A stretch of DNA of 32,194 nt from an uncultured Dechloromonas sp. (GCA_964459735.1 CAYWNX010000001.1:1-32194); one strand, 5' to 3'. Shown: positions 3,923-16,567, numbered from the stretch's first letter. The notes: a model not told the origin generated them from the sequence alone. Program-made: numbers and translations.

Positions 3923-4803
3923 TTTTCTTGAAGCTGGTTTTTACTTACATTCTGGTTGGCTTTCTCTGGTTGTTGCACTGGTTGCCGCTGCCGGTATTGA
4001 GAGCCTTGGGTAGCTTGCTCGGTCGTTTGCTTTATGCCTTTGGTCGCGAGCGGCGCAAGGTGGCATTGATCAACTTGCGTCTTTGTTTCCCGGAAAAGTC
4101 GGAAGCGGAGCGCGAGGACTTGGCGCGCCGACATTTTATTGCCTTCAGTCGGGCCGTGCTGGACCGGACTCTTGGCTGGTGGGCTTCGAGGGAACGGCTG
4201 GAGCGCATCGTCCGGATTCATGGCGTCGAGCATCTCAATGATCCCGATGGCAAGCCGGTCATCATCCTTTCGCCGCATTTTGTCGGACTGGATGCAGGTG
4301 CGACGCGGATCTCGATGTTTGTTCGGGGTTGCAGCGTTTATTCAAACCAGAAAAATCCGGTTTTCAACAAGCTGCTTTATGATGGACGGATTCGCTTTAC
4401 CGAAGCTGTGCTGCTTTCCCGGCAGGATGGAATGCGCAAGATCATCAAGGCAATGAAGGACGGCTTCAAGTTTTACTATCTGCCGGACATGGATTTTGGT
4501 CCCAAGGAATCGATATTCGTACCGTTTTTCGGTGTGCCGGCCGCGACCATTCCCGGGGTTTCCCGGCTGGCGCGCCTAACCGGGGCCAGGGTGGTCGCCA
4601 GTATCACCCGTCAGGTTCCGGATGGCTACGAAGTAGAGGTGACGCCAGCCTGGGAGAACTTCCCGGGGGAGAGTGTCGAAGCTGATACGGAGTTTGTTAA
4701 TCAGTTTATCGAGAGCCAGGTGCTGCTTATGCCGGAGCAGTATTTTTGGTTGCACAAGCGTTTCAAGACCCGGCCACCCGGAGAAAAAAGGTACTACAAA
4801 TGA
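3919..4803 (+). CDS. Lipid A lauroyl/myristoyl acyltransferase (LpxL/LpxM family), copy 2
   Basis: SPHFVGLD H-x4-D motif, LPDMDFG, VPFFG and PEQYFWLHKRFKTRP. GTGA overlap with the upstream gene. Confidence 0.9.
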   Translation: MIFLKLVFTYILVGFLWLLHWLPLPVLRALGSLLGRLLYAFGRERRKVALINLRLCFPEKSEAEREDLARRHFIAFSRAVLDRTLGWWASRERLERIVRIHGVEHLNDPDGKPVIILSPHFVGLDAGATRISMFVRGCSVYSNQKNPVFNKLLYDGRIRFTEAVLLSRQDGMRKIIKAMKDGFKFYYLPDMDFGPKESIFVPFFGVPAATIPGVSRLARLTGARVVASITRQVPDGYEVEVTPAWENFPGESVEADTEFVNQFIESQVLLMPEQYFWLHKRFKTRPPGEKRYYK

Positions 4804-6868: not shown

Positions 6869-7765
6869 GTGAACCAAGCGGCTACGGCCGTCGCTGCCTA
6901 TCTGGCCGAACTGGCCGAGCAACGGCGGCTGTCGCCGCATACCGTCAGCAATTACCGGCGCGATCTGGCGCGCTTGTTGAATCTGGCCGGGGAAACTTCA
7001 CTGGCCGAGTTGCAGGTTCATCACATTCGCCGCTTTGCCGCGCAACTGCACGGCCAGGGGCTTTCCGGACGTTCGCTCGCCCGCCTGCTCTCCGCCTGGC
7101 GTGGTTTCTTCAACTGGCTGGGTCGTGGTGACGCTGTGCGCGCCAACCCGTGCGAAGGCGTTCGCTCGCCGAAATCGCCCAAACATCTGCCGAATGCCCT
7201 CTCGGTCGATGAGGCGGCGCGCTTGCTGCAGCCTGCCGATGACGGCGACCCGGTGCTGCTGGCACGGGATACGGCGATGTTCGAGCTTTTCTATTCCTCC
7301 GGGCTACGCCTGGCCGAGTTGGCGGCGCTCGATTGCGCCGCGCTTGATGCCGCCATCAATGAAGGTGAAGTTCGCGTTCTCGGCAAGCGCAACAAGGCTC
7401 GGCTGGTGCCGGTTGGCCGCAAGGCACGGGAAGCGCTGGCGGCCTGGGCGGCGCTACGTGAGACGCTGGCCGGGGCGGAAGAGCCGGCGCTTTTTGTCAG
7501 CCGGCGCGGCGGACGGATCAGCCATCGGATGATTCAGTTGCGCCTGGCGCAACTCGCCTTGCAACTCGGCTTGCCGCGCCACGTGCACCCGCACATGCTG
7601 CGCCACTCCTTCGCCTCGCATGTCTTGCAATCGTCTGGCGACCTGCGCGCGGTGCAGGAAATGCTTGGCCACGCCAGTATTGCCTCGACGCAGGTCTACA
7701 CGCATCTCGATTTCCAGCATCTGGCCAAAGTCTACGACTCGACGCATCCAAGGGCCAAACGTTAG
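6869..7765 (+). CDS. xerC: Tyrosine recombinase XerC
   Basis: SSGLRLAEL, LGKRNKAR and HPHMLRHSFASHVLQSSGDLRAVQEMLGH...TQVYTH; dapF-DUF484-xerC synteny. Confidence 0.95.
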   Translation: MNQAATAVAAYLAELAEQRRLSPHTVSNYRRDLARLLNLAGETSLAELQVHHIRRFAAQLHGQGLSGRSLARLLSAWRGFFNWLGRGDAVRANPCEGVRSPKSPKHLPNALSVDEAARLLQPADDGDPVLLARDTAMFELFYSSGLRLAELAALDCAALDAAINEGEVRVLGKRNKARLVPVGRKAREALAAWAALRETLAGAEEPALFVSRRGGRISHRMIQLRLAQLALQLGLPRHVHPHMLRHSFASHVLQSSGDLRAVQEMLGHASIASTQVYTHLDFQHLAKVYDSTHPRAKR

Positions 7766-7813
7766 GCAATTGTTACGGTCAACCGCTAAAAACGCCTGAA
7801 AATCAAGCTTTAA

Positions 7814-7842
7814 TTGACCTTTTCTCTACCACCCTCTATGAT
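7814..7842 (+). promoter_or_regulatory. Sigma70 promoter for the small basic protein
   Basis: TTGACC (7814-7819), exactly 17 nt, TATGAT (7837-7842); both hexamers 5/6 consensus. Confidence 0.75.
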
Positions 7843-7881
7843 TGATGGTTCTGAAAATTAGCCGGATTCAAGGAGTTAGTC

Positions 7882-8034
7882 ATGGCAATTACCCGCACCC
7901 GCCGTTCTTCCCTGGAGCGCCGTTGCGTCTCCAAGTCCACCAAGCGCCTGTTCAAGGGCACCGGCAAGACCATGTTCAAGGTCGTTTACGCCGCTGAATG
8001 CCATTCCCGGAATCGCAAGGCCCTGGGCGCTTAA
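7882..8034 (+). CDS. Small basic hypothetical protein (50 aa), not in ORF track
   Basis: AAGGAG RBS 6 nt before ATG; MAITRTRRSSLERRCVSKSTKRLFKGTGKTMFKVVYAAECHSRNRKALGA*; strong C/G third-position bias; flanked by a promoter and a terminator. Confidence 0.78.
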   Translation: MAITRTRRSSLERRCVSKSTKRLFKGTGKTMFKVVYAAECHSRNRKALGA

Positions 8035-8053
8035 GTTTGTTCAAGCATGTTGG

Positions 8054-8091
8054 GCCCCGGTTACTGCAAGGTAACCGGGGCTTCTTTCATT
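8054..8091 (+). terminator. Intrinsic terminator
   Basis: GCCCCGGTTAC-TGCAAG-GTAACCGGGGC (11-bp stem, GCAA tetraloop) followed by TTCTTTCATT. Confidence 0.85.
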
Positions 8092-8107
8092 TGAGGTCGA
8101 GAAAAAT

Positions 8108-9301
8108 ATGGCTCAGCTGATTCTCATGCCGGGTAAGGAACGTTCCGCGTTCAAGCAGCATCACCCGTGGTTGTTTGCCGGTTCGGTCGGGCGGCTGGAA
8201 GGCCGGGCACGGCCGGGCGATACGGTGGATGTGCTGGCCGATAATCTGCGCCCGCTGGGCAAGGCAGCGTACAGCCCGAAGTCGCAGATCCGTGCCCGTT
8301 TCTGGACCTTCGACCCGGAAGAATCAGTCGATGATGCTTTTTTCAAACGCCGCATCGCGACTGCCGTGGCGCGCCGCCAGGCGCTGCCCGAGTTGCGCGG
8401 CCAGCAGGGCTTGCGCCTGATTCATGCCGAATCGGATGGCTTGCCCGGCGTCATTGCCGACCAGTACGCCGATACGATCGTGGTTCAACTGACCTCGGCC
8501 GGCGCCGATAAATGGCGCAATGCGATTGTGGCCGGGCTGGTCAAGGCAACCGGCTGCGCTCGGATTTACGAGCGTTCCGACTCCGATGTGCGTGGTCTGG
8601 AAGGCCTGGAGCCGACGACGGGCTGGATCTATGGTGAAGCTCCGACTGCGCCGTTGGCGATTGACGAAAACGGCATCAAGCTGGCGGTCGACATCGCCGG
8701 CGGCCATAAAACCGGTTTTTACCTCGACCAGCGCGACAACCGCGCCTTGCTCGGCCAATTGTCGGCCGGCAAGGATGCCCTGAACTGTTTCTGCTACACC
8801 GGCGGTTTTTCCCTGCAGGCGCTGGCTGGCGGCGCGGCGAGCGTGCTGTCGATTGACTCTTCTGGTCCGGCGCTGGCGCAGGCGCAGGCCAATCTGGCGC
8901 TCAATCCGCAACTGCCGGCTGAGCGTGCCGAGTGGCGGGAAGCAGATGTGTTCCAGGCGCTGCGCGATTTCCGCAAGGAAGGGCGTTTGTTTGATCTGAT
9001 CGTGCTTGATCCCCCCAAGTTTGCACCGTCAGCGGCGCATGCCGAACGGGCGGCAGGGGCCTACAAGGACATCAATGTGCTCGGTTGTCGCTTGCTCAAA
9101 CCGGGCGGCTTGCTGATGACCTATTCCTGTTCCGGCGGTATCGGGCTGGAGTTGTTCCAGAAGATCGTCGCGGGGGCCGCCGTCGATTCCGGCCGTGAGG
9201 CACGCATCGTCAGGCGTCTGGCTGGTTCGGCCGATCATCCGGTAGCCTTGAACTTCCCGGAAGGCGAATATCTCAAAGGCTTGCTCGTTCAGGTCGATTA
9301 A
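8108..9301 (+). CDS. rlmI: 23S rRNA m5C1962 methyltransferase RlmI family
   Basis: PUA-like N-terminus HHPWLFAG, ESDGLPG, GHKTGFYLDQRDNR, FCYTGGF, LDPPKF, TYSCSG and PEGEYLKG. Confidence 0.9.
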   Translation: MAQLILMPGKERSAFKQHHPWLFAGSVGRLEGRARPGDTVDVLADNLRPLGKAAYSPKSQIRARFWTFDPEESVDDAFFKRRIATAVARRQALPELRGQQGLRLIHAESDGLPGVIADQYADTIVVQLTSAGADKWRNAIVAGLVKATGCARIYERSDSDVRGLEGLEPTTGWIYGEAPTAPLAIDENGIKLAVDIAGGHKTGFYLDQRDNRALLGQLSAGKDALNCFCYTGGFSLQALAGGAASVLSIDSSGPALAQAQANLALNPQLPAERAEWREADVFQALRDFRKEGRLFDLIVLDPPKFAPSAAHAERAAGAYKDINVLGCRLLKPGGLLMTYSCSGGIGLELFQKIVAGAAVDSGREARIVRRLAGSADHPVALNFPEGEYLKGLLVQVD

Positions 9302-9310
9302 ACTCAAGCC

Positions 9311-9592
9311 GTGAATTCGTTGCGCCATCTCCTTCTTGTTGCCGTTCTCCTCTTCGCCCAACTGGCGGCGGGGGTGCATGCCGTCGGGCATGCGGCGGAC
9401 AACGAGCCGGGCTTGCCAACGCATGCCTGCGAGCTTTGTCTGGCCGCGCACGACCTCGGTTCGGCGTTGCACTCGCTGGCGGCCTTGCCGCCGGTGGCAC
9501 TTGCCGTGCTGGTGCCTGAGTCGCTGCAATCGCACGACCGCAGCGCTTTACCACCCCCCGCCGCACCGCAGCGCGGCCCGCCTAACGCCTGA
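9311..9592 (+). CDS. DUF2946/CruR-like leader (uORF) peptide with His/CxxC motif and C-terminal RGPP
   Basis: 93 aa: hydrophobic signal-like N-terminus, HAVGH, HACELCLAAH, Pro-rich linker and QRGPPNA*. Lies directly upstream of a metal-uptake operon. Confidence 0.8.
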   Translation: MNSLRHLLLVAVLLFAQLAAGVHAVGHAADNEPGLPTHACELCLAAHDLGSALHSLAALPPVALAVLVPESLQSHDRSALPPPAAPQRGPPNA

Positions 9593-9659
9593 AAACGCCC
9601 TATTTTTGTTGTCGACCGCAGCATTTTGCTGCCGCTGACGTTCGTTGCGTTTTCAGGAG
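9588..9659 (+). promoter_or_regulatory. SD-sequestering hairpin (putative translational attenuator)
   Basis: CCTGAAAACGC (9588-9598, contains the uORF stop) is the exact reverse complement of GCGTTTTCAGG (9647-9657, overlaps AGGAG SD 9655-9659). Inner hairpin GCAGCA-TTT-TGCTGC at 9618-9632. Confidence 0.72.
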
Positions 9660-9665
9660 AATTCC

Positions 9666-11087
9666 ATGTTGCCCAAGCCATTTGCCTTGGCTGCGCTGCT
9701 TGCCGCCTCGTGCGGCGCGCAGGCGGCCGGTGATGCCGATCTTGCCGCCATCCGCAGACAGATCGATGAGATGAAAAAGACCGACGAGCAGCGGATTGCC
9801 GCGCTCGAACAGAAACTGCTGCAGGCTGAAGCACAAACCAGAGAAAGCAAACCGTCAGAGCCGGTGCCGGTTGCCGAAAATCGCGCTGTTGCGCCGTTGA
9901 CCGCAAGCGCCAGCGGCTTCAACCCCGAGGTTTCGCTGATTCTGCAGGGGCAGTACAAAAACATGAAGGATGTGGCCGAACGCGGTATTACCGGTTTCGT
10001 CCCGGCCGGCGGCCACGACCACGGTGAAGGCAGTATTGAAGGCATCAACAAGCGGGGTTTCTCGGTTGATCACACCGAACTGGTGCTGGCCGCCAATATT
10101 GATCCCAATTGGCGCGGTCAGGCGATCATTGCGGTGCTGGATGACTCGGCGGAAGTCGAGGAGGCATGGTTCCAGTCGCTCGGCCTGGGTCAGGGTATCG
10201 GGCTGAAGGGCGGCCGCTTCCGCTCGGGTATCGGCTACCTTAACGAGCAACACCCGCATATGTGGGATTTTGCCGATGCGCCGCTGATGTATCAGGTGAT
10301 GTTCGGGACGCACGGCAGTTACGCCCAGGATGGGGTGCAGCTCAAATGGCTGGCCCCGACGCCGGTTTTTCTGGAATTCGGTGCCGAGTTCGGGCGTGGC
10401 GCCAATTTCCCCGGGACTGACCGCAACAAGAATGGCACAGGCGGCGGGGCCTTGTTCGCACATCTCGGCGGCGATGTCGGTGTCGCGCATAACTGGCGAG
10501 CCGGCATTTCGTACCTGAAGACGTCGGCGCAGGAGCGTGAGGCGCATTTCGAGGATGTAAACGGCGTTGAAGCGCAGGGTGCCTTTGGCGGCGACTCGAC
10601 GACATGGGTGGCCGATTTTGTCTGGAAATGGGCGCCGAACGGCAACCCGAAATATCAGAACTTCAAGTTCCAGAGCGAGTACTTTGCCCGCAAGGAAAGC
10701 GGCTCACTGACTTGCATGGATGAAGAAAATGCCGGCAATGCCTGCAACCCGAACCTGGACGGCAGCTCAGTAACCAGCCACTACCTGACGCGCCAGTCCG
10801 GCTGGTATGCCCAGGGCGTCTTCCAGTTCACGCCCAACTGGCGCGGCGGTCTGCGCTATGAGCAACTCGACAGCGGCAGGCGTGATTTCGGCGAAAATGC
10901 CAACTACCTTGTCGTTGATAGCTATCGCCCCAAAAAGGCGAGTGCGATGATCGACTACAGCTGGAGCGAGTTTTCGCGCGTCCGCCTGCAATTCGCGCAG
11001 GACAAGTCGATGCTCGGTATTACCGACAATCAGCTTACTGTCCAATACGTCATGAGCTTGGGCGCCCATGGCGCGCACAAGTTCTAG
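9666..11087 (+). CDS. Outer-membrane beta-barrel, putative metal-uptake porin/receptor
   Basis: AGGAG RBS before ATG 9666; signal peptide (AQA), coiled coil, FNPEVSLILQG, His loop GGHDHGEG, alternating beta-strands and C-terminal SLGAHGAHKF ending in Phe. Confidence 0.8.
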   Translation: MLPKPFALAALLAASCGAQAAGDADLAAIRRQIDEMKKTDEQRIAALEQKLLQAEAQTRESKPSEPVPVAENRAVAPLTASASGFNPEVSLILQGQYKNMKDVAERGITGFVPAGGHDHGEGSIEGINKRGFSVDHTELVLAANIDPNWRGQAIIAVLDDSAEVEEAWFQSLGLGQGIGLKGGRFRSGIGYLNEQHPHMWDFADAPLMYQVMFGTHGSYAQDGVQLKWLAPTPVFLEFGAEFGRGANFPGTDRNKNGTGGGALFAHLGGDVGVAHNWRAGISYLKTSAQEREAHFEDVNGVEAQGAFGGDSTTWVADFVWKWAPNGNPKYQNFKFQSEYFARKESGSLTCMDEENAGNACNPNLDGSSVTSHYLTRQSGWYAQGVFQFTPNWRGGLRYEQLDSGRRDFGENANYLVVDSYRPKKASAMIDYSWSEFSRVRLQFAQDKSMLGITDNQLTVQYVMSLGAHGAHKF

Positions 11088-11098
11088 GGAGCCGGCCA

Positions 11099-11995
11099 AT
11101 GAAAAAACAGATATCCGCTTTGTTGTTGGCGCTGGCCGTCTTGCCGGCCTGGGCCAATCTCAACGTCTTTGCCACGGTGCCCGAATGGGGGGCGCTGGCC
11201 AAGGAAATCGGCGGCGAGCAGGTGACGGTCTACACCGCGACCACTGCTTTCCAGGACCTGCACCGGATCGAAGCCAGGCCCTCGCTGCTCGCCCAGGCGC
11301 GCCGGGCGCAACTGATCGTCGCGGCCGGGGCTGATCTGGAAATCGGCTGGCTGCCACTGGTCGTCCGCGATTCGGGAAATTCGGCCATTCAGGCCGGTCG
11401 ACCGGGGTATTTCGAGGCGGCCAGCTACGTCAATCGCCTCGACGTGCCGACGGTGCTCGACCGGGCTCACGGTGACGTGCACGCGGCTGGCAATCCCCAT
11501 ACCCACCTCAACCCGCACAACGTGCTGAAAGTCGGCGAAGCCCTGGCGACGCGAATGGCCGAACTCGATGCCAACAATGCCACGGTCTATCAGAGCGGCT
11601 TCAAGACCTTTGCCGGCAAGTGGCAGGTGGCGATGGCGCGTTGGGAGAAAGAGGGCGCACCGTTGCGCGGGGTGCCGGTGCTGGTCCATCACTCGTCCTT
11701 CGTTTACCTGACGCACTGGCTGGGCATGAAGGAGGTTGGGTCGCTTGAGCCAAAGCCCGGCGTCGAGCCGAGTAGCGGTCATCTGAGCAGCCTGTTGAGC
11801 CAGCAGCAAACGACACCGGCCAGAATGGTCTTGCGCGCCGCCTACAACCCGGAAGGTCCGAGTCAGTGGATCGCCGGCAAGACCGGCATCCCGGCGGTGC
11901 TGCTGCCTTATACGGTGGGTGGCACGGCCGAGGCGAAAGACCTGTTCGGTTTGTTTGATGACACGCTGCAACGCTTGTTGAAAGGCTTACGTTGA
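11099..11995 (+). CDS. Metal ABC transporter substrate-binding protein (cluster A-I, ZnuA/TroA-like)
   Basis: Signal peptide, QDLH, GADLEIGWL, HGDVHAAGNPH, HHSSFVYL and LEPKPGVEPS. Confidence 0.9.
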   Translation: MKKQISALLLALAVLPAWANLNVFATVPEWGALAKEIGGEQVTVYTATTAFQDLHRIEARPSLLAQARRAQLIVAAGADLEIGWLPLVVRDSGNSAIQAGRPGYFEAASYVNRLDVPTVLDRAHGDVHAAGNPHTHLNPHNVLKVGEALATRMAELDANNATVYQSGFKTFAGKWQVAMARWEKEGAPLRGVPVLVHHSSFVYLTHWLGMKEVGSLEPKPGVEPSSGHLSSLLSQQQTTPARMVLRAAYNPEGPSQWIAGKTGIPAVLLPYTVGGTAEAKDLFGLFDDTLQRLLKGLR

Positions 11996-12570
11996 GTTTT
12001 TTGTTGACCATTGAGCAGTTGGTAGCCGGCTGGCAGCAGCCGGCCACCCAGCCTTTCGACCTGACGCTCGCGGCGGGTGAAATTGTCGGCCTGACCGGCC
12101 CCAATGGCGTTGGCAAAAGCACGCTGCTTGCCGCCATGGCTGGGCGGGCAAGGGTTTTTTCCGGACGGATCGAACAGCAACCGGGTTTGCGCCTGGCCTT
12201 GCAGACACAGGATGTCCCGCCGGTCGATGGCCTGCCGCTTTCCGGCCGTGAATTGCTGGCCTTGACCGGCGCCAGCGCCGAAGGTTTGCCGCCCTGGCTG
12301 GCCGAGCGCATCGATATCCGCCTGGATCGCCTTTCCGGTGGCCAGCGTCACTATCTCGCGTTGTGGGCAATTTTGCAGGCGCCGGCCGATCTGGTGCTGC
12401 TCGATGAGCCGACCAATAATCTCGATGCCGCCGGCGTGGCACACCTGACGGCGCATCTGCGCGAAAGGGCGGAAGCGGGGGCGGGCATGATTGTCGTCAG
12501 CCACGATGCCGCCTTTGTCGAAGGTGTCTGTGATCGTGTTCTGGTGCTGGAGGCTGGCGATGTGGAGTGA
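11992..12570 (+). CDS. ABC transporter ATP-binding protein (ZnuC-like, short)
   Basis: Walker A GPNGVGKST, signature LSGGQ, Walker B LVLLDEP and H-loop VSHD; TTG start overlapping the upstream stop. Confidence 0.88.
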   Translation: MSFLLTIEQLVAGWQQPATQPFDLTLAAGEIVGLTGPNGVGKSTLLAAMAGRARVFSGRIEQQPGLRLALQTQDVPPVDGLPLSGRELLALTGASAEGLPPWLAERIDIRLDRLSGGQRHYLALWAILQAPADLVLLDEPTNNLDAAGVAHLTAHLRERAEAGAGMIVVSHDAAFVEGVCDRVLVLEAGDVE

Positions 12571-13324
12571 ACTTTTTCTCGTGCCATTCCTGACCGGCCT
12601 TTGTCTGGCCATTTTGTTGCCGCTGCTTGGTTGCTACCTGCGGCTGCGTGACGAATGGTTGGCGGCACTGGCCTATTCCCATGTTGCGGCCGCCGGTGCC
12701 TTGCTGGCGCTGGTAAGCGCCATGCCTCCCGCTTTGGGCGGGATTGCGGCCGCCGGTCTGGCGGGCGCGGGCAAGCGATTTTTCGCCCACAAACTGGCTG
12801 GTGGCGCCAGTTATGCCTTGCTGCTGCTTGGTGGCTGGGCGGTGGCGGTGTTGTTGGCCGCCAATCATCCGATGGCCGAACGCCTTGGTCATGCCTTGTT
12901 CGACGGTCAACTCTATTTTTCCGGCAGCGAACAACTCTGGCTGGTCGCAATTTGTAGTTTTGTTGCCCTGCTGCTGCTGCGCCTTCTCGCCAAAAATTTG
13001 CTGCTGGCGCATGTTTATCCTGATTTTTTCCGCATTCGCGGTCTGCTCGCCTGGCCGACACAGAGTGGTTTTGATCTGCTCGCCGCCCTGGTGCTGGCCT
13101 TGGCCACCATGAGCATGGGCGTCATGGGTGCCTTTGCCCTCGTCTTCATTCCGCCCTGGCTGGCTTTCCGGCGGGCGCCTGACTGGCGGGCCGGTTTGTG
13201 GCTGGCACTGGCAATCGGTCTGCTTGCCTACATCGCCGCCTTTCTGCTCGCGCTTGGCCTGGATCAACCGTTTGGACCGGTGCTGGCGCTGGTTTTGATT
13301 GTTGTCGGTCTGGTCATTGCATGA
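12560..13324 (+). CDS. Metal ABC transporter permease (ABC-3/ZnuB-like)
   Basis: ATG 12560 with GGAGG upstream; highly hydrophobic; LGCYLRLR..LAALAYSHVAAAG, LFDGQLYF and LDQPFGPV. Confidence 0.85.
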   Translation: MWSELFLVPFLTGLCLAILLPLLGCYLRLRDEWLAALAYSHVAAAGALLALVSAMPPALGGIAAAGLAGAGKRFFAHKLAGGASYALLLLGGWAVAVLLAANHPMAERLGHALFDGQLYFSGSEQLWLVAICSFVALLLLRLLAKNLLLAHVYPDFFRIRGLLAWPTQSGFDLLAALVLALATMSMGVMGAFALVFIPPWLAFRRAPDWRAGLWLALAIGLLAYIAAFLLALGLDQPFGPVLALVLIVVGLVIA

Positions 13325-13369
13325 GCCGGGACGGCGTGCTAAAACGCTTCCTCTGTACGCGGAGTGCTT

Positions 13370-14680
13370 ATGGTTTTTTCCTTTTTCAAGAAGCAGCCCC
13401 AGAAGATGCCGGAGCGTCCGGCGGCCCGCCCGCGCCCTCCGGAGCCGCGGCCTGAGGTTCTGGCGCCTAAACCGCTGATTGTCGAAGTCGAGCCGTTGGC
13501 CGAGCCTTTGCCGGATCTCGAATTCACCTCAAGCAGCCCGACGTCGGCCTTGTCGGTGGCGAAAAAAATCGATTCCGTTTCACCTGCAACGCCGTTCAAG
13601 GCGCCCGCCGAGCTTGCCGACCTTGATTTTTCCGTCGATGACTTTGACCGCGACTTTACCGAATCCAGCGTCATGGCGATTGATGTTGAAGACGGCGGTG
13701 ATCCGGTGCAGGCGGATATTGAGCAGGTCGTCGTGATGTTTGCCAACAATCAAGACTCCGGTGCCCGGGCACTGCTGGAAATGCTTATCAGGGCGCATCC
13801 GGTCAGTGAAGGGCGGCGTTTCTGGACCCTGCTTTTTGATTTGCTGCAGATTACCGGTGATCGTGCGGCCTTCGAGAAACTGAGCCTCGAATTTACCGAG
13901 ACCTGTGAAATCTCTCCGCCATCCTGGCAACAAGAGCAGCCATTGGCGGTCAGCAATGGCAATGGTGTCGGCTCCAGGGTTTTTGTGCTGCAGGGGGTGT
14001 TGACCGCAGACGGTGCCCAGCCGGTGGCTGAGTTGGCCAAACTACTCAGCCAGCCGGGGACCGGGAAGCAGGAAATCACGGTGGATTGCGGCAAGCTGAT
14101 TGGCTGTGATGACGAAGTGGCTGGCCAACTGGCCGAACTGCTCAGCCAGGCCCGGCGTCGTGGCCCGGTGGTGATGCTTGAAAATGTCGAGGGTTTGCTC
14201 GGCCGGCTCAGCGAACGCCTGATCGTTGGTGAGGTCACGCACGCACCGGCCTGGCTGCTTTTGCTGGAGTTGCTGCAGCGCCATTCAACGCAGGATGTTT
14301 TTGAGGAGCGGGCGGTCGATTACGCCGTCACTTTTGAACTGTCACCGCCGTCGTGGGAAAGCTTGCCCGGTACTGTCGCTAAATCGACCACAAATCCCGG
14401 TCGACCGCAGGATGACGCCTACTATTTTTCCGGTGAGCTAAAAAACTCGCATTTCGACGAACTGGTTGAAGTCTTCAAGCTGATAGATCAGCCGGTTCTC
14501 GACTTTTCCGGTGTTCGCCGGATGGACTTCTTCTCGGCCGGGCAACTGGTCAATCGGTTAGCGCCTTACAAGGCTGCAGGGCGGGAGATTGTCATTCGCA
14601 GCCCGAACCATCTGGTGGCTGAACTGATGGCCGTCGTCGGCCTCAACAAACAGGCACGTATCATCGTTCCCAAGTCATAA
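13370..14680 (+). CDS. STAS-domain protein with duplicated helical/STAS architecture
   Basis: GGAG RBS before ATG 13370; C-terminal STAS-like YFSGEL..VLDFSGVRRMDFFSAGQLVNRL..LVAELMAVVGL; a second STAS-like segment centrally. Confidence 0.75.
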   Translation: MVFSFFKKQPQKMPERPAARPRPPEPRPEVLAPKPLIVEVEPLAEPLPDLEFTSSSPTSALSVAKKIDSVSPATPFKAPAELADLDFSVDDFDRDFTESSVMAIDVEDGGDPVQADIEQVVVMFANNQDSGARALLEMLIRAHPVSEGRRFWTLLFDLLQITGDRAAFEKLSLEFTETCEISPPSWQQEQPLAVSNGNGVGSRVFVLQGVLTADGAQPVAELAKLLSQPGTGKQEITVDCGKLIGCDDEVAGQLAELLSQARRRGPVVMLENVEGLLGRLSERLIVGEVTHAPAWLLLLELLQRHSTQDVFEERAVDYAVTFELSPPSWESLPGTVAKSTTNPGRPQDDAYYFSGELKNSHFDELVEVFKLIDQPVLDFSGVRRMDFFSAGQLVNRLAPYKAAGREIVIRSPNHLVAELMAVVGLNKQARIIVPKS

Positions 14681-14696
14681 GCGTTAGGAAAAAATC

Positions 14697-15233
14697 ATGG
14701 AGCAATATCACGGCACGACAATTCTGTCGGTGCGGCGCGGCAACTCGGTCGCCATGGGTGGCGACGGACAGGTCACGCTGGGTAATGTCGTCATCAAGGC
14801 CACCGCCCGCAAAGTCCGGCGTCTGTATCAGGGACGTATTCTGGCCGGGTTTGCCGGCGGTACGGCCGATGCTTTTACGCTCTTTGAGCGTTTTGAATCG
14901 AAGCTGGAAAAGCACCAGGGCAATTTGATGCGTTCGGCTGTCGAACTCGCCAAGGACTGGCGTTCGGATCGCGCCCTGCGCCGGCTGGAGGCCATGCTTT
15001 CGGTCGCCGATCGCGAAAACTCGCTGGTGATTACCGGTAACGGCGACGTGCTGGAACCCGAATATGGCATTGTTGCCATTGGTTCCGGTGGCTCCTATGC
15101 CCAGAGTGCTGCCCGTGCACTGCTTGAGAATACCGAGCTGTCGCCGCTTGAAATCGTTACCAAGTCGCTGGAAATTGCTGGCGACATCTGTATTTACACC
15201 AACCGCAATTTCACGATCGAGGTTCTGGAATGA
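14697..15233 (+). CDS. hslV: ATP-dependent protease peptidase subunit HslV
   Basis: MEQYHG|TTILSVRR (N-terminal Thr nucleophile), [18 protein letters not shown] and AIGSGG. Confidence 0.98.
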
Positions 15234-16567
15234 CGGCAATGACCCCGCAGGAAATCGTCCACGAGCTGGACAAACACATCGTCGGCCAGAACAACGCCAA
15301 GAAGGCAGTCGCCATTGCACTGCGCAATCGCTGGCGGCGAGCGCAAGTGGCCGAGCCGCTGCGGCAGGAAATCACTCCGAAAAACATCCTGATGATCGGG
15401 CCGACCGGTGTCGGCAAGACGGAAATCGCCCGTCGGCTGGCTCGGCTGGCCAATGCGCCGTTCATCAAGATCGAAGCGACCAAGTTCACCGAGGTTGGTT
15501 ATGTTGGCCGCGATGTCGAGACGATCATCCGAGACCTGGTGGAAATCGCCATCAAGTCGCACCGCGAACGGGCGATGAAACAAATGCGAGCCCGGGCTGA
15601 GGATGCCGCCGAGGAGCGCGTTCTGGATGCCTTGTTGCCACCGGCCCGTGGCCCCGGTTTCTTTGCCGAAAATACGGGGGCGACGGAAGAGAGCGCGACG
15701 CGGCAGAAATTCCGCAAGAAGCTGCGCGAAGGAGAATTGAACGACAAGGAAATCGAGATCGAAGTCGCGGCGCCCGGCATGCAGGCCGAAATCTTTGCGC
15801 CGCCCGGCATGGAAGAATTGACCCAGCAGATTCAGGGGATGTTCCAGAACATCGGTGGAGGCAAGAAGAAAACCCGCAAGCTGAAAATTCCCGAAGCCTT
15901 GAAGTTGCTCACTGACGAGGAAGCCGCCAAGTTGGTCAATGACGAGGATGTGAAGCTCGAGTCGGTCAAGGCCGTCGAGCAAAATGGCATCGTTTTTCTC
16001 GATGAACTGGACAAGATCGCCAGCCGTTCGGAAATGCAGGGTGCCGATGTCTCGCGCCAGGGCGTGCAGCGCGACTTGCTGCCGCTGGTTGAAGGCACGA
16101 CAGTGTCCACCAAGTACGGCATGATCAAGACCGACCACATTTTGTTCATTGCCTCCGGTGCTTTTCATCTTTCCAAGCCCTCCGACCTGATTCCCGAATT
16201 GCAGGGCCGCTTCCCTATCCGTGTCGAACTGGACTCGCTATCGGTTGCCGATTTCGAATGCATCCTGACCCAGACCGATGCTTGTCTGACCCGGCAATAT
16301 CAGGCGCTGCTCGAAACCGAGGGGGTGCAGCTTGAGTTTGCGGCGGACGGTGTCCGGCGCCTGGCTGAAATTGCCTATCAGGTGAATGAGAAAACCGAAA
16401 ACATCGGCGCCCGTCGGCTGCATACGGTAATGGAAAAGCTGCTTGAGGAAATCTCCTTTGCGACTGGCAAGGCTGGGCAGGAGAAGTTGGTCATCGATGC
16501 CGCCTACGTCAATTTGCGACTGGGTGAACTGGCAGCCGACGAAGACTTGTCGCGTTACGTGCTGTGA
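15230..16567 (+). CDS. hslU: ATP-dependent protease ATPase subunit HslU
   Basis: [29 protein letters not shown] pore loop and [10 protein letters not shown]. Confidence 0.98.

Follow-up and report, generated by a model that had tools for sequence, protein, structure and literature searches.

A candidate zinc-sensing ribosome-arrest leader peptide ahead of a porin and ZnuABC-type operon in Dechloromonas

How a metal-import operon might be controlled by the short gene in front of it is the question raised by a 32,194-nucleotide stretch of DNA from an uncultured Dechloromonas sp. (GCA_964459735.1, CAYWNX010000001.1:1-32194; this whole stretch is called the window below). It contains an open reading frame (ORF) of 93 aa, here called the leader, directly ahead of four same-strand genes for metal import, namely an outer-membrane barrel and proteins matching PF01297, PF00005 and PF00950. 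Bacterial zinc uptake is normally read as Zur-controlled. A sequence-only reading of the DNA had taken the leader for a metal-sensing arrest peptide and had described its seven His, C40-x-x-C43 and R88-G-P-P91, the genes that follow it and the lack of a Zur, Fur or NikR gene and of a Zur box. The ORF and its neighbours were found just as described, no Fur-family gene is present in the window, and no Zur-like palindrome of either form searched lies near the operon at up to two mismatches (NikR was not searched for). We propose, at a probability of roughly 0.55, that the ribosome arrests at R-G-P-P in zinc scarcity and opens an RNA stem, whereupon the importer is made, and that zinc releases the arrest and lets the stem re-form.

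The leader peptide and its predicted arrest site

The leader ORF is a real gene under coding selection. In comparison with the window, 62 gap-free 93-aa orthologues carry 1424, 1278 and 2391 mismatches at codon positions 1, 2 and 3, respectively, and their single-change codons comprise 1445 synonymous versus 700 non-synonymous cases. The stop codon of a PUA-methyltransferase gene precedes the leader start by 9 nt, and 73 nt separate the leader from the barrel gene. This arrangement recurs. After exclusion of 6 loci with less than 500 bp upstream, 104 of the 110 close loci examined were left, many of them kin, and a leader with CxxC and C-terminal PP stands upstream of the porin in 101 of these. 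For a broader view 80 diverse loci of ~11 kb were used (the family and the class contributing 40 each, with roughly one locus per genus or family), which were picked from barrel matches with long contigs favoured; the leader precedes the same porin in 72 of them, in keeping with the association proposed from the window. In these and all other locus counts kin are non-independent. The barrel itself was matched in 73 of 120 family genomes and in 72 of 300 class genomes (included in the class tally are the genome of the window and two that are not yet published, G235 and G157, the latter two supporting no other claim made here). Named homologues of the barrel come from Dechloromonas, Azonexus and Ferribacterium. 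At E ≤ 0.001 a profile built from 45 leaders matched 4983 clusters, by profile match alone.

The His residues of the leader lie at positions 6, 23, 27, 38, 47, 54 and 75, and Cys occurs only at 40 and 43. Across 45 diverse leaders H23, C40, C43, P90 and P91 are invariant and Q17 and H27 nearly so, and CxxC is found in 65 of the 72 leaders of the diverse loci. Among the 62 close orthologues H38 is retained in 61, H75 in 33 and H54 in one (Pro in 56). The earlier description of the peptide as His-enriched is thus too loose, and the set of seven His was rejected as the sensor. The conserved putative metal ligands are His23, His27, Cys40 and Cys43. An AlphaFold model (mean pLDDT 76, pTM 0.49), from which ligand geometry is unreadable, contains a helix at 3-29, on which a single turn separates H23 from H27, and a second, short helix that begins at residue 41. 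Foldseek returned zero matches to this model at E ≤ 0.001, Pfam and NCBIfam gave nothing for the window protein, and a protein-atlas search led to unnamed clusters and to one with 20% PF11162, which is taken as a lead only.

The peptide ends in R88-G-P-P91 followed by N-A-stop. Among the 72 diverse leaders the tails are RAPP (55), RGPP (8), GAPP (3), QAPP (2) and RDPP, RSPP, RPPP and GPPP (1 each). RGPP has been reported as the most robust arrest motif in four peptide contexts and as the most avoided tetrapeptide in 10 bacterial groups, with RDPP, RSPP and RPPP giving partial arrest (PMC12992588), and QAPP arrests as well (PMC10987492). In the long open frames of the window's genome 9 RGPP were seen versus 19.7 expected. 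The predicted stall register was adopted from the toeprint of CruR (PMC12992588), the copper-responsive leader Bp2923 of Bordetella pertussis (DUF2946/PF11162). The CxxC-to-motif spacer measures 43-47 residues in all 65 diverse leaders having CxxC, its length being fixed and its sequence variable; the CxxC had been placed about 47-50 residues from the stall site, and the spacer to the motif is counted here as 44 in the window. In CruR this spacer is 45 residues, and regulation is lost at +5 (PMC9426467). By virtue of the fixed spacing, the mostly arrest-supporting tail variants and the first place in the operon, the comparative evidence supports a metal-sensing arrest leader of the CruR type, or of that of CutF from Rhodobacter capsulatus, on a non-copper importer, and it agrees with the earlier suggestion of a CruR-like architecture attached to a cluster A-I ABC system.

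The signal-like N-terminus, the metal ligands and the loss of Arg in the GAPP variants would also suit a small exported metal chaperone, for which PP tail and stem were incidental. We regard this as very improbable, as the spacer keeps its length despite variable sequence, the tail is a proteome-avoided motif and the position of the stem is tied to the P-site (see below).

Several leader variants were noted besides. The second Cys of CxxC is absent from the distant leaders L194, L197, L198, L200, L202 and L203 and likewise from L122, L123, L126, L127 and L129, and such leaders often have H-x(3-4)-H-xx-H clusters, which hints that His has taken the place of Cys as a ligand. In the L007 / L143 leader a (GHDH/GGDH)n repeat is inserted between the His pair and CxxC. 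The tail R-Q-G-A-P-P aligns in register with Q-R-G-P-P, with Gly in the place of Arg (loci with the GAPP tail include L002, L004, L021, L048, L079, L096 and L099-L101) and could be a new arrest motif or a weakened switch; the string 'GAPP' is absent from PMC10987492. On a Sulfurovum plasmid (L224:3306-3662) a 118-aa leader with a His run, CxxC, a HAPP tail and a longer spacer precedes the same porin-ZnuA-permease genes, so the system reaches Campylobacterota.

A predicted hairpin over the porin ribosome-binding site

Folding of the region between leader and porin predicts an 11-bp stem of 9588-9598 with 9647-9657, which buries three bases of the porin Shine-Dalgarno sequence AGGAG and the eight bases preceding them. 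The stem region folds with -28.6 kcal/mol (z -3.63; 1 of 200 shuffles equally good), and the same closure was obtained with differing sequences in single-sequence folds of close loci, among the folds listed. The survey was extended to 69 of the 72 diverse leaders (three were dropped for a gap >210 nt or for having no Shine-Dalgarno sequence), and 51 crudely called gene pairs of the window's genome served as controls (1 of 52 dropped). With positions counted from the P-site (P), the Shine-Dalgarno sequence is paired with P+5..+22 at a probability >0.5 in 47 of 69 relatives versus none of 51 controls. The pairing probability amounts to 59% in P+7..+18, which we take to be the place of the stalled ribosome's entry channel, and to <4% per 6-nt bin outside P+1..+18. 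Furthermore, a footprint to +15 makes the porin ribosome-binding site cheaper to open, at 5.0 instead of 12.5 kcal/mol in the window; in the relatives the median drop is 4.1 kcal/mol, and it is at least 2 kcal/mol in 48 of 69. According to these models the operon output is most likely a Shine-Dalgarno-hiding hairpin opened by the stalled ribosome. This output is deduced from the stem together with CutF and SecM-type peptides, and the sign of the switch from the cargo, an importer, together with CruR.

The analysis shows the gene and the selection on it, the conserved residues with their spacing, the operon, the predicted stem with its constant place in relatives and the tie of the operon family to Zur. 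We infer from these that there is arrest and metal binding, that the metal is zinc, which way the switch works and where sensing takes place, and arrive at the following course of events. When zinc is scarce, the ribosome would stall at R-G-P-P and hold the stem open, and porin, ZnuA, ZnuC and ZnuB would be translated. Under ample zinc, the N-terminal helix would probably feed the nascent chain into the Sec channel, and at the moment when the 44-residue spacer emerges from the tunnel His23, His27, Cys40 and Cys43 would come together in a closed site, a folding step that would pull the chain free. The freed ribosome would finish three codons later and depart. With the stem closed again the operon would no longer be translated, and termination by Rho on the C-rich message might follow. 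Sensing could be either periplasmic as in CutF or signal-independent as in CruR.

Around the stall site C exceeds G in 72 of 72 leaders (median +15 per 78 nt), and inside the porin gene in 36 of 72 (median +0.5); given this stretch in every leader, Rho may act as a second layer. The same C excess would suit a zinc-sensing arrest that acts mainly through Rho-dependent termination, which has been shown for CruR, with the stem secondary. Such an output is quite unlikely here, considering that the intergenic region comprises 73 nt versus 162 in cruR, that the Shine-Dalgarno sequence of relatives pairs at a fixed distance from the P-site and that the C-richness follows at least partly from Pro/Ala codons; both layers can coexist.

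The leader lacks a Shine-Dalgarno sequence of its own, and the hexamer TAAACT ends 6 nt before its GTG. In 58 of 85 close loci the start codon follows the end of a TAnnnT at a distance of 6-7 nt, and 26 of these have no upstream gene ending next to it; from this position a leaderless transcript of the leader's own may be deduced. This leaderless -10 is not general, being found in 11 of the 72 diverse loci. A promoter scan detected neither a sigma-70 site ahead of the leader nor a terminator in the gap that separates it from the porin gene. No Rfam family reached threshold within 7000-14000, so no known riboswitch lies there. Two metatranscriptome runs matched 8% of words. Leader and porin are both covered by contigs from relatives, of which one spans 9332-9799; nothing was drawn from them, as contigs reveal neither strand nor transcription.

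Importer, metal and Zur

A ZnuA-family gene follows the porin in 78 of the 80 diverse loci, and a permease of the same cluster is present in 77 of the 80 operons (gene maps, by eye). The ATPase gene occurs in just 28, the majority having the order porin-binding protein-permease, as in Vibrio. In the window PF01297, PF00005 and PF00950 and a His triad give a ZnuABC-type make-up, with all NCBIfam equivalog cut-offs missed; His55, His134 and His198 of the binding protein align with His of a solved cyanobacterial ZnuA, the third ligand being His, as in ZnuA. The barrel matches no Pfam family over cut-off and no plug domain PF07715 at E ≤ 1. Its model (mean pLDDT 58, residues 60-151 poorly modelled) fits best to 16-stranded porins (OprP with Z 18.9, rmsd 4.3 and 292 aligned residues), with PorB, chitoporin and OmpT within ~1 Z of OprP. 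The earlier designation as a plug-less barrel is thereby upheld. Database labels of its homologues vary between TonB-dependent receptor, carbohydrate porin and OprO/OprP porin; the identity as a TonB-dependent receptor was rejected, as a Pfam plug is missing and porins are the best folds, and true receptors behind DUF2946 leaders do match PF07715. This suggests that many 'zinc-regulated TonB-dependent receptors' in databases may be plug-less porins.

Within the 80 diverse loci a Zur-type gene was found in 21 (within 5 kb), COG0523 in 12, ZrgA/ZIP in 7, ZrgB in 7, ZrgE in 5 and DUF1826 in 3. A Zur-like palindrome with at most one mismatch, of the form of the candidate Zur sites in the supplement of PMC2770081, lies within 3.5 kb upstream in 28 of 80 and downstream in none. 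Taken together, a zinc marker or Zur-like box is present in 28 of 72 leader loci and in 7 of the 8 leaderless ones (35 of 80 in total). One PCuAC and one CbiM were the only copper/cobalt markers in the neighbouring genes that were scanned, which comprised 52 representatives of clusters as well as 101 proteins (100 of the latter from 121 singletons), and among the recurrent and adjacent genes scanned copper-homeostasis neighbours were limited to PCuAC at 1 locus. Vibrio campbellii has the homologous three genes (identity of the porin 31%, of the binding protein 36%) with two exact boxes (L223:3893-3907 and 3927-3941) and without a leader. An omr-znuAII-znuBII cluster of V. campbellii is named in PMC9817125, where zinc limitation raises the like-named operon of V. 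parahaemolyticus 283- to 1034-fold; that the genes of V. parahaemolyticus are orthologous is taken from the statement in that paper. By neighbourhood and Vibrio homologue zinc is most likely the metal, which retains the earlier suggestion of a metal other than copper, the importer being of a non-copper type, and narrows it.

The same arrest switch could also sense and import Cu, Ni, Co or Mn. Cleavage after Ala24 would presumably leave an N-terminal V-G-H, an Xaa-Xaa-His Cu(II)/Ni(II) motif. PCuAC and CbiM each stand beside the operon at one locus, solved Mn-binding proteins score near zinc ones for the binding protein, COG0523 proteins are not all zinc-related, and the CxxC of CruR senses copper, with only a moderate effect of zinc (PMC9426467). 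Against this, zur, Zur-like boxes, ZrgA/B/E, ZIP and DUF1826 cluster with the operon, the third ligand of the binding protein is that of ZnuA, and the third Cys of copper-type DUF2946 is absent; another metal is therefore unlikely.

The window's genome (58% complete) yielded no zur with three queries, and its only PF01475 match, on another contig, is Fur proper. The genus was surveyed with two Zur queries in 60 genomes at least 90% complete, of which 52 match the leader profile (counted by profile match alone). A betaproteobacterial Zur is present in 4 of the 60, each time directly before the leader and with an exact box, and an E. coli-like Zur in 22. The notion that the genus lacks Zur was rejected on account of this second clade. 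Neither query matched in 32 of the 52 leader-bearing genomes; in four closed genomes of this group (G095, G456, G470 and G474) the operon holds the sole PF01297 gene. It is conceivable, if on balance doubtful, that the leader has replaced Zur in much of the genus, where a constitutive leaderless transcript would be gated only by a nascent His2Cys2 sensor and the stem and would control the sole ZnuA-type importer. In that event these cells would sense zinc primarily with the ribosome, and the leader family would be a widespread post-transcriptional zinc control. As a separate observation, leaders behind a betaproteobacterial-type zur (L230-L233; L088, L091-L095) have a Shine-Dalgarno-like word and no -10 hexamer.

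The distribution of Zur also bears on whether the leader senses metal at all. It might stall and open the stem while monitoring export, membrane or redox state (a CxxC disulfide), or simply boost or localise translation, zinc control being transcriptional where Zur exists. SecM-type peptides share the stem logic (PMC10987492), a disulfide model has been proposed for CutF (bioRxiv 10.1101/2025.02.05.636593), and at the 28 of 72 leader loci with zinc markers or boxes Zur may do the sensing. A disulfide, on the other hand, needs neither the invariant His23 nor the near-invariant His27, and the seven leaders without CxxC keep 3-6 His; moreover a Zur gene, zinc marker or box is present at 7 of the 8 loci that lack a leader, and within the genus the two queries detected no Zur in 32 of the genomes that have one. 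We consider such a monitor distinctly improbable.

Counter-evidence and known leader peptides

A number of results weigh against a zinc-released arrest that opens the stem. RAPP-like motifs do not stall in every case. Among 103 close leaders 14 end in GAPP and 11 in QGPP, both without the Arg of the motif, and arrest may be weak or context-dependent in some of them; Arg was irreplaceable in ApcA, ApdA and ApdP (PMC12992588). The second Cys of CxxC is absent in 7 of the 72 diverse leaders (these are the leaders retaining 3-6 His). V22-H23-A24 resembles a signal-peptidase site in 99 of 149 representatives, and cleavage there would sever His23 from His27; an AxA-like site is present in just 19 of 60 scored diverse leaders, and the His is retained where the site is not cleavable. 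As to the stem, 22 of 69 relatives fall below the pairing threshold, and the equilibrium unpairing of the Shine-Dalgarno sequence rises only from 0.32 to 0.40 in the window and from a median of 0.04 to 0.28. In favour of the stem, the four pairs beside the Shine-Dalgarno sequence show complementarity in 40-45 of 56 rows and include every one of the four Watson-Crick types, a level that 0 of 1000 shuffles reach; this count leans towards the stem, since the rows were chosen and registered by predicted pairing and kinship was ignored. RNAalifold found no consensus structure in a MAFFT alignment of 31 diverse regions, which mixes two stem registers, and in 37 close regions a 5-bp core only, present in 35-37 of 37 without both-sided changes. 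Finally, the zinc link is one by neighbourhood, the window has no Zur box, and 44 of the 72 leader loci have neither zinc marker nor box within the 11 kb read.

Among known systems CruR (PMC9426467), for which arrest in vitro has been reported (PMC12992588), resembles the leader in being a small first gene with export signal, CxxC, a ~45-residue spacer, a C-terminal RAPP-like motif and a C-rich 3' part at the head of a metal-importer operon, and in that arrest is predicted in scarcity and release by metal. It differs in several respects. The window leader has Q-x5-H-xxx-H and not the third Cys upstream of CxxC; the CruR operon encodes a TonB receptor and PepSY, that of the window a porin and a ZnuABC-type ABC system; and the 162-nt spacer of cruR carries a Rho terminator, whereas the 73 nt of the window carry a Shine-Dalgarno-hiding stem, with zinc as the probable metal. 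Table S1 of PMC9426467 has no Dechloromonas or Azonexus row. A match to PF11162, to which the sequence-only reading had pointed, was not obtained for the window protein at E ≤ 1; the family matches 21 of 45 relatives at E ≤ 0.5 (best 1.1e-6), and one orthologue (G064, 25 bits) is over cut-off. For comparison, 24 of 30 DUF2946 matches from the same order were scored (6 had no recognisable tail). Q-x5-H occurs in 56 of 72 leaders versus 1 of 24 DUF2946 matches, 22 of which have an extra Cys, and the genes behind DUF2946 matches encode plug-bearing TonB receptors, SCO1 or PCuAC. Judged by these sequence features, the leader family is a sister group of DUF2946, distant kin and not a plain member.

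In analogy to the window leader, CutF (PMC9973294, bioRxiv 10.1101/2025.02.05.636593) is an exported leader whose stalled ribosome melts a Shine-Dalgarno-hiding stem. It has CxxxC and a PPP tail in place of CxxC and RGPP, and its stall, which occurs in the presence of copper, activates a detoxifying oxidase, so the switch of the window should have the opposite sign. The leader lies within the list-D rules for CutF-like proteins (PMC9973294) with 93 aa (<150), PP at 90-91 and a 73-nt gap (<1000), its Sec signal being judged from sequence and predicted helix. That study predicts that some CutF-like proteins sense other metals (Ni and Co, before HupE/UreJ), and its available text names neither zinc nor ZnuA neighbours. 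Motif, size and signal are also those of RAPP/RGPP arrest peptides (ApdA, ApdP, RQH class). Members of the leader family are present in the source data of PMC12992588; in the main text, as far as available, they are not discussed, 'zinc', 'ZnuA' and 'DUF2946' are absent and no family member is reported as tested. Vibrio omr-znuAII-znuBII, which is Zur-regulated, has homologues of porin, binding protein and permease arranged as in the window (V. campbellii), with two Zur-like boxes and no leader, whereas the operon of the window has leader and stem and no box. Membership of the leader in DUF2607/ZrgD (PF10795) was rejected (0 of 45 leaders at E ≤ 0.5). Separately, two RAPP leaders before a 'carbohydrate porin' are labelled DUF2607 in the source data of PMC12992588, and the Vibrio gene zrgD, which opens the Zur-regulated zrg operon and has no known function, belongs to DUF2607 (PMC9817125); ZrgD may be a related arrest leader.

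The kind of element is thus already known from CruR and CutF, and the family is listed in the source data of PMC12992588. New here are the position-fixed anti-Shine-Dalgarno stem with its control, the linkage to Zur genes and boxes, the features that set the family apart from copper-type DUF2946 and, within one genus, the frequent presence of the leader in genomes with no detectable Zur. No zinc-sensing arrest peptide was found in the literature searched, with incomplete coverage of subscription papers and supplements, and according to the CruR paper no riboswitch is known for copper or zinc (PMC9426467). If the proposal is true, a zinc-released arrest peptide fills the place of the missing post-transcriptional zinc control and extends to zinc a mechanism experimentally shown, in that literature, for copper alone. 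The CruR/CutF scaffold would change its metal by a swap of Cys for a His pair, and the sign of CruR (on in scarcity) would be combined with the output of CutF (stem opening). The natural series of loci (box only, box and leader, leader only; RGPP, RAPP, QGPP and GAPP tails) makes the question testable, and the 93-codon cassette of ~360 nt would be a compact zinc reporter.

Table 1. Features of the leader and import operon, in window coordinates
Feature	Position	Strand	Basis
-10-like hexamer TAAACT, candidate leaderless promoter, overlapping the methyltransferase stop codon	9299..9304	+	distance to the start codon, recurrence in close loci
Leader ORF, candidate metal-sensing arrest peptide, 93 aa, GTG start	9311..9592	+	ORF call, orthologue comparison
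Hydrophobic core L7-A16 of signal or signal-anchor helix	9329..9358	+	sequence; predicted helix 3-29, pLDDT 83-90
Conserved putative ligand set H23-xxx-H27 ... (H38)-x-C40-xx-C43	9377..9439	+	conservation; metal binding inferred
C-rich stretch, possible Rho loading site	9480..9600	+	C up to 0.46, G down to 0.22 (78-nt windows)
R-G-P-P codons; predicted P-site Pro90 (9578-9580), A-site Pro91 (9581-9583)	9572..9583	+	register by CruR toeprint analogy (PMC12992588)
Predicted stem 5' arm (anti-Shine-Dalgarno, CCUGAAAACGC), spanning the leader stop, +11 to +21 from the P-site	9588..9598	+	folding
Inner hairpin of the intergenic region	9610..9640	+	folding; present but variable in relatives
Predicted stem 3' arm and porin Shine-Dalgarno AGGAG (9655-9659)	9647..9659	+	sequence, folding
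Outer-membrane porin-like barrel gene, 473 aa, long N-terminal helix	9666..11087	+	homologues, structure model
Cluster A-I substrate-binding protein gene	11099..11995	+	PF01297, E 1e-35
ABC ATPase gene	11992..12570	+	PF00005
ABC-3 (ZnuB-type) permease gene	12560..13324	+	PF00950

Downstream of the operon, at 13364-16567, a gene for a double-STAS protein is followed by hslV and hslU, an arrangement found 3' of the operon in many family members. Upstream, between xerC and the methyltransferase gene, a basic ORF of 50 aa with a Shine-Dalgarno sequence (7882-8034, +) matches no Pfam family at E ≤ 0.001. It is flanked by a sigma-70-like promoter (7814-7842) and a strong terminator (8052-8083; region 7814-8093), and its identity amounts to 88-100% among the tblastn matches listed (68 lines).

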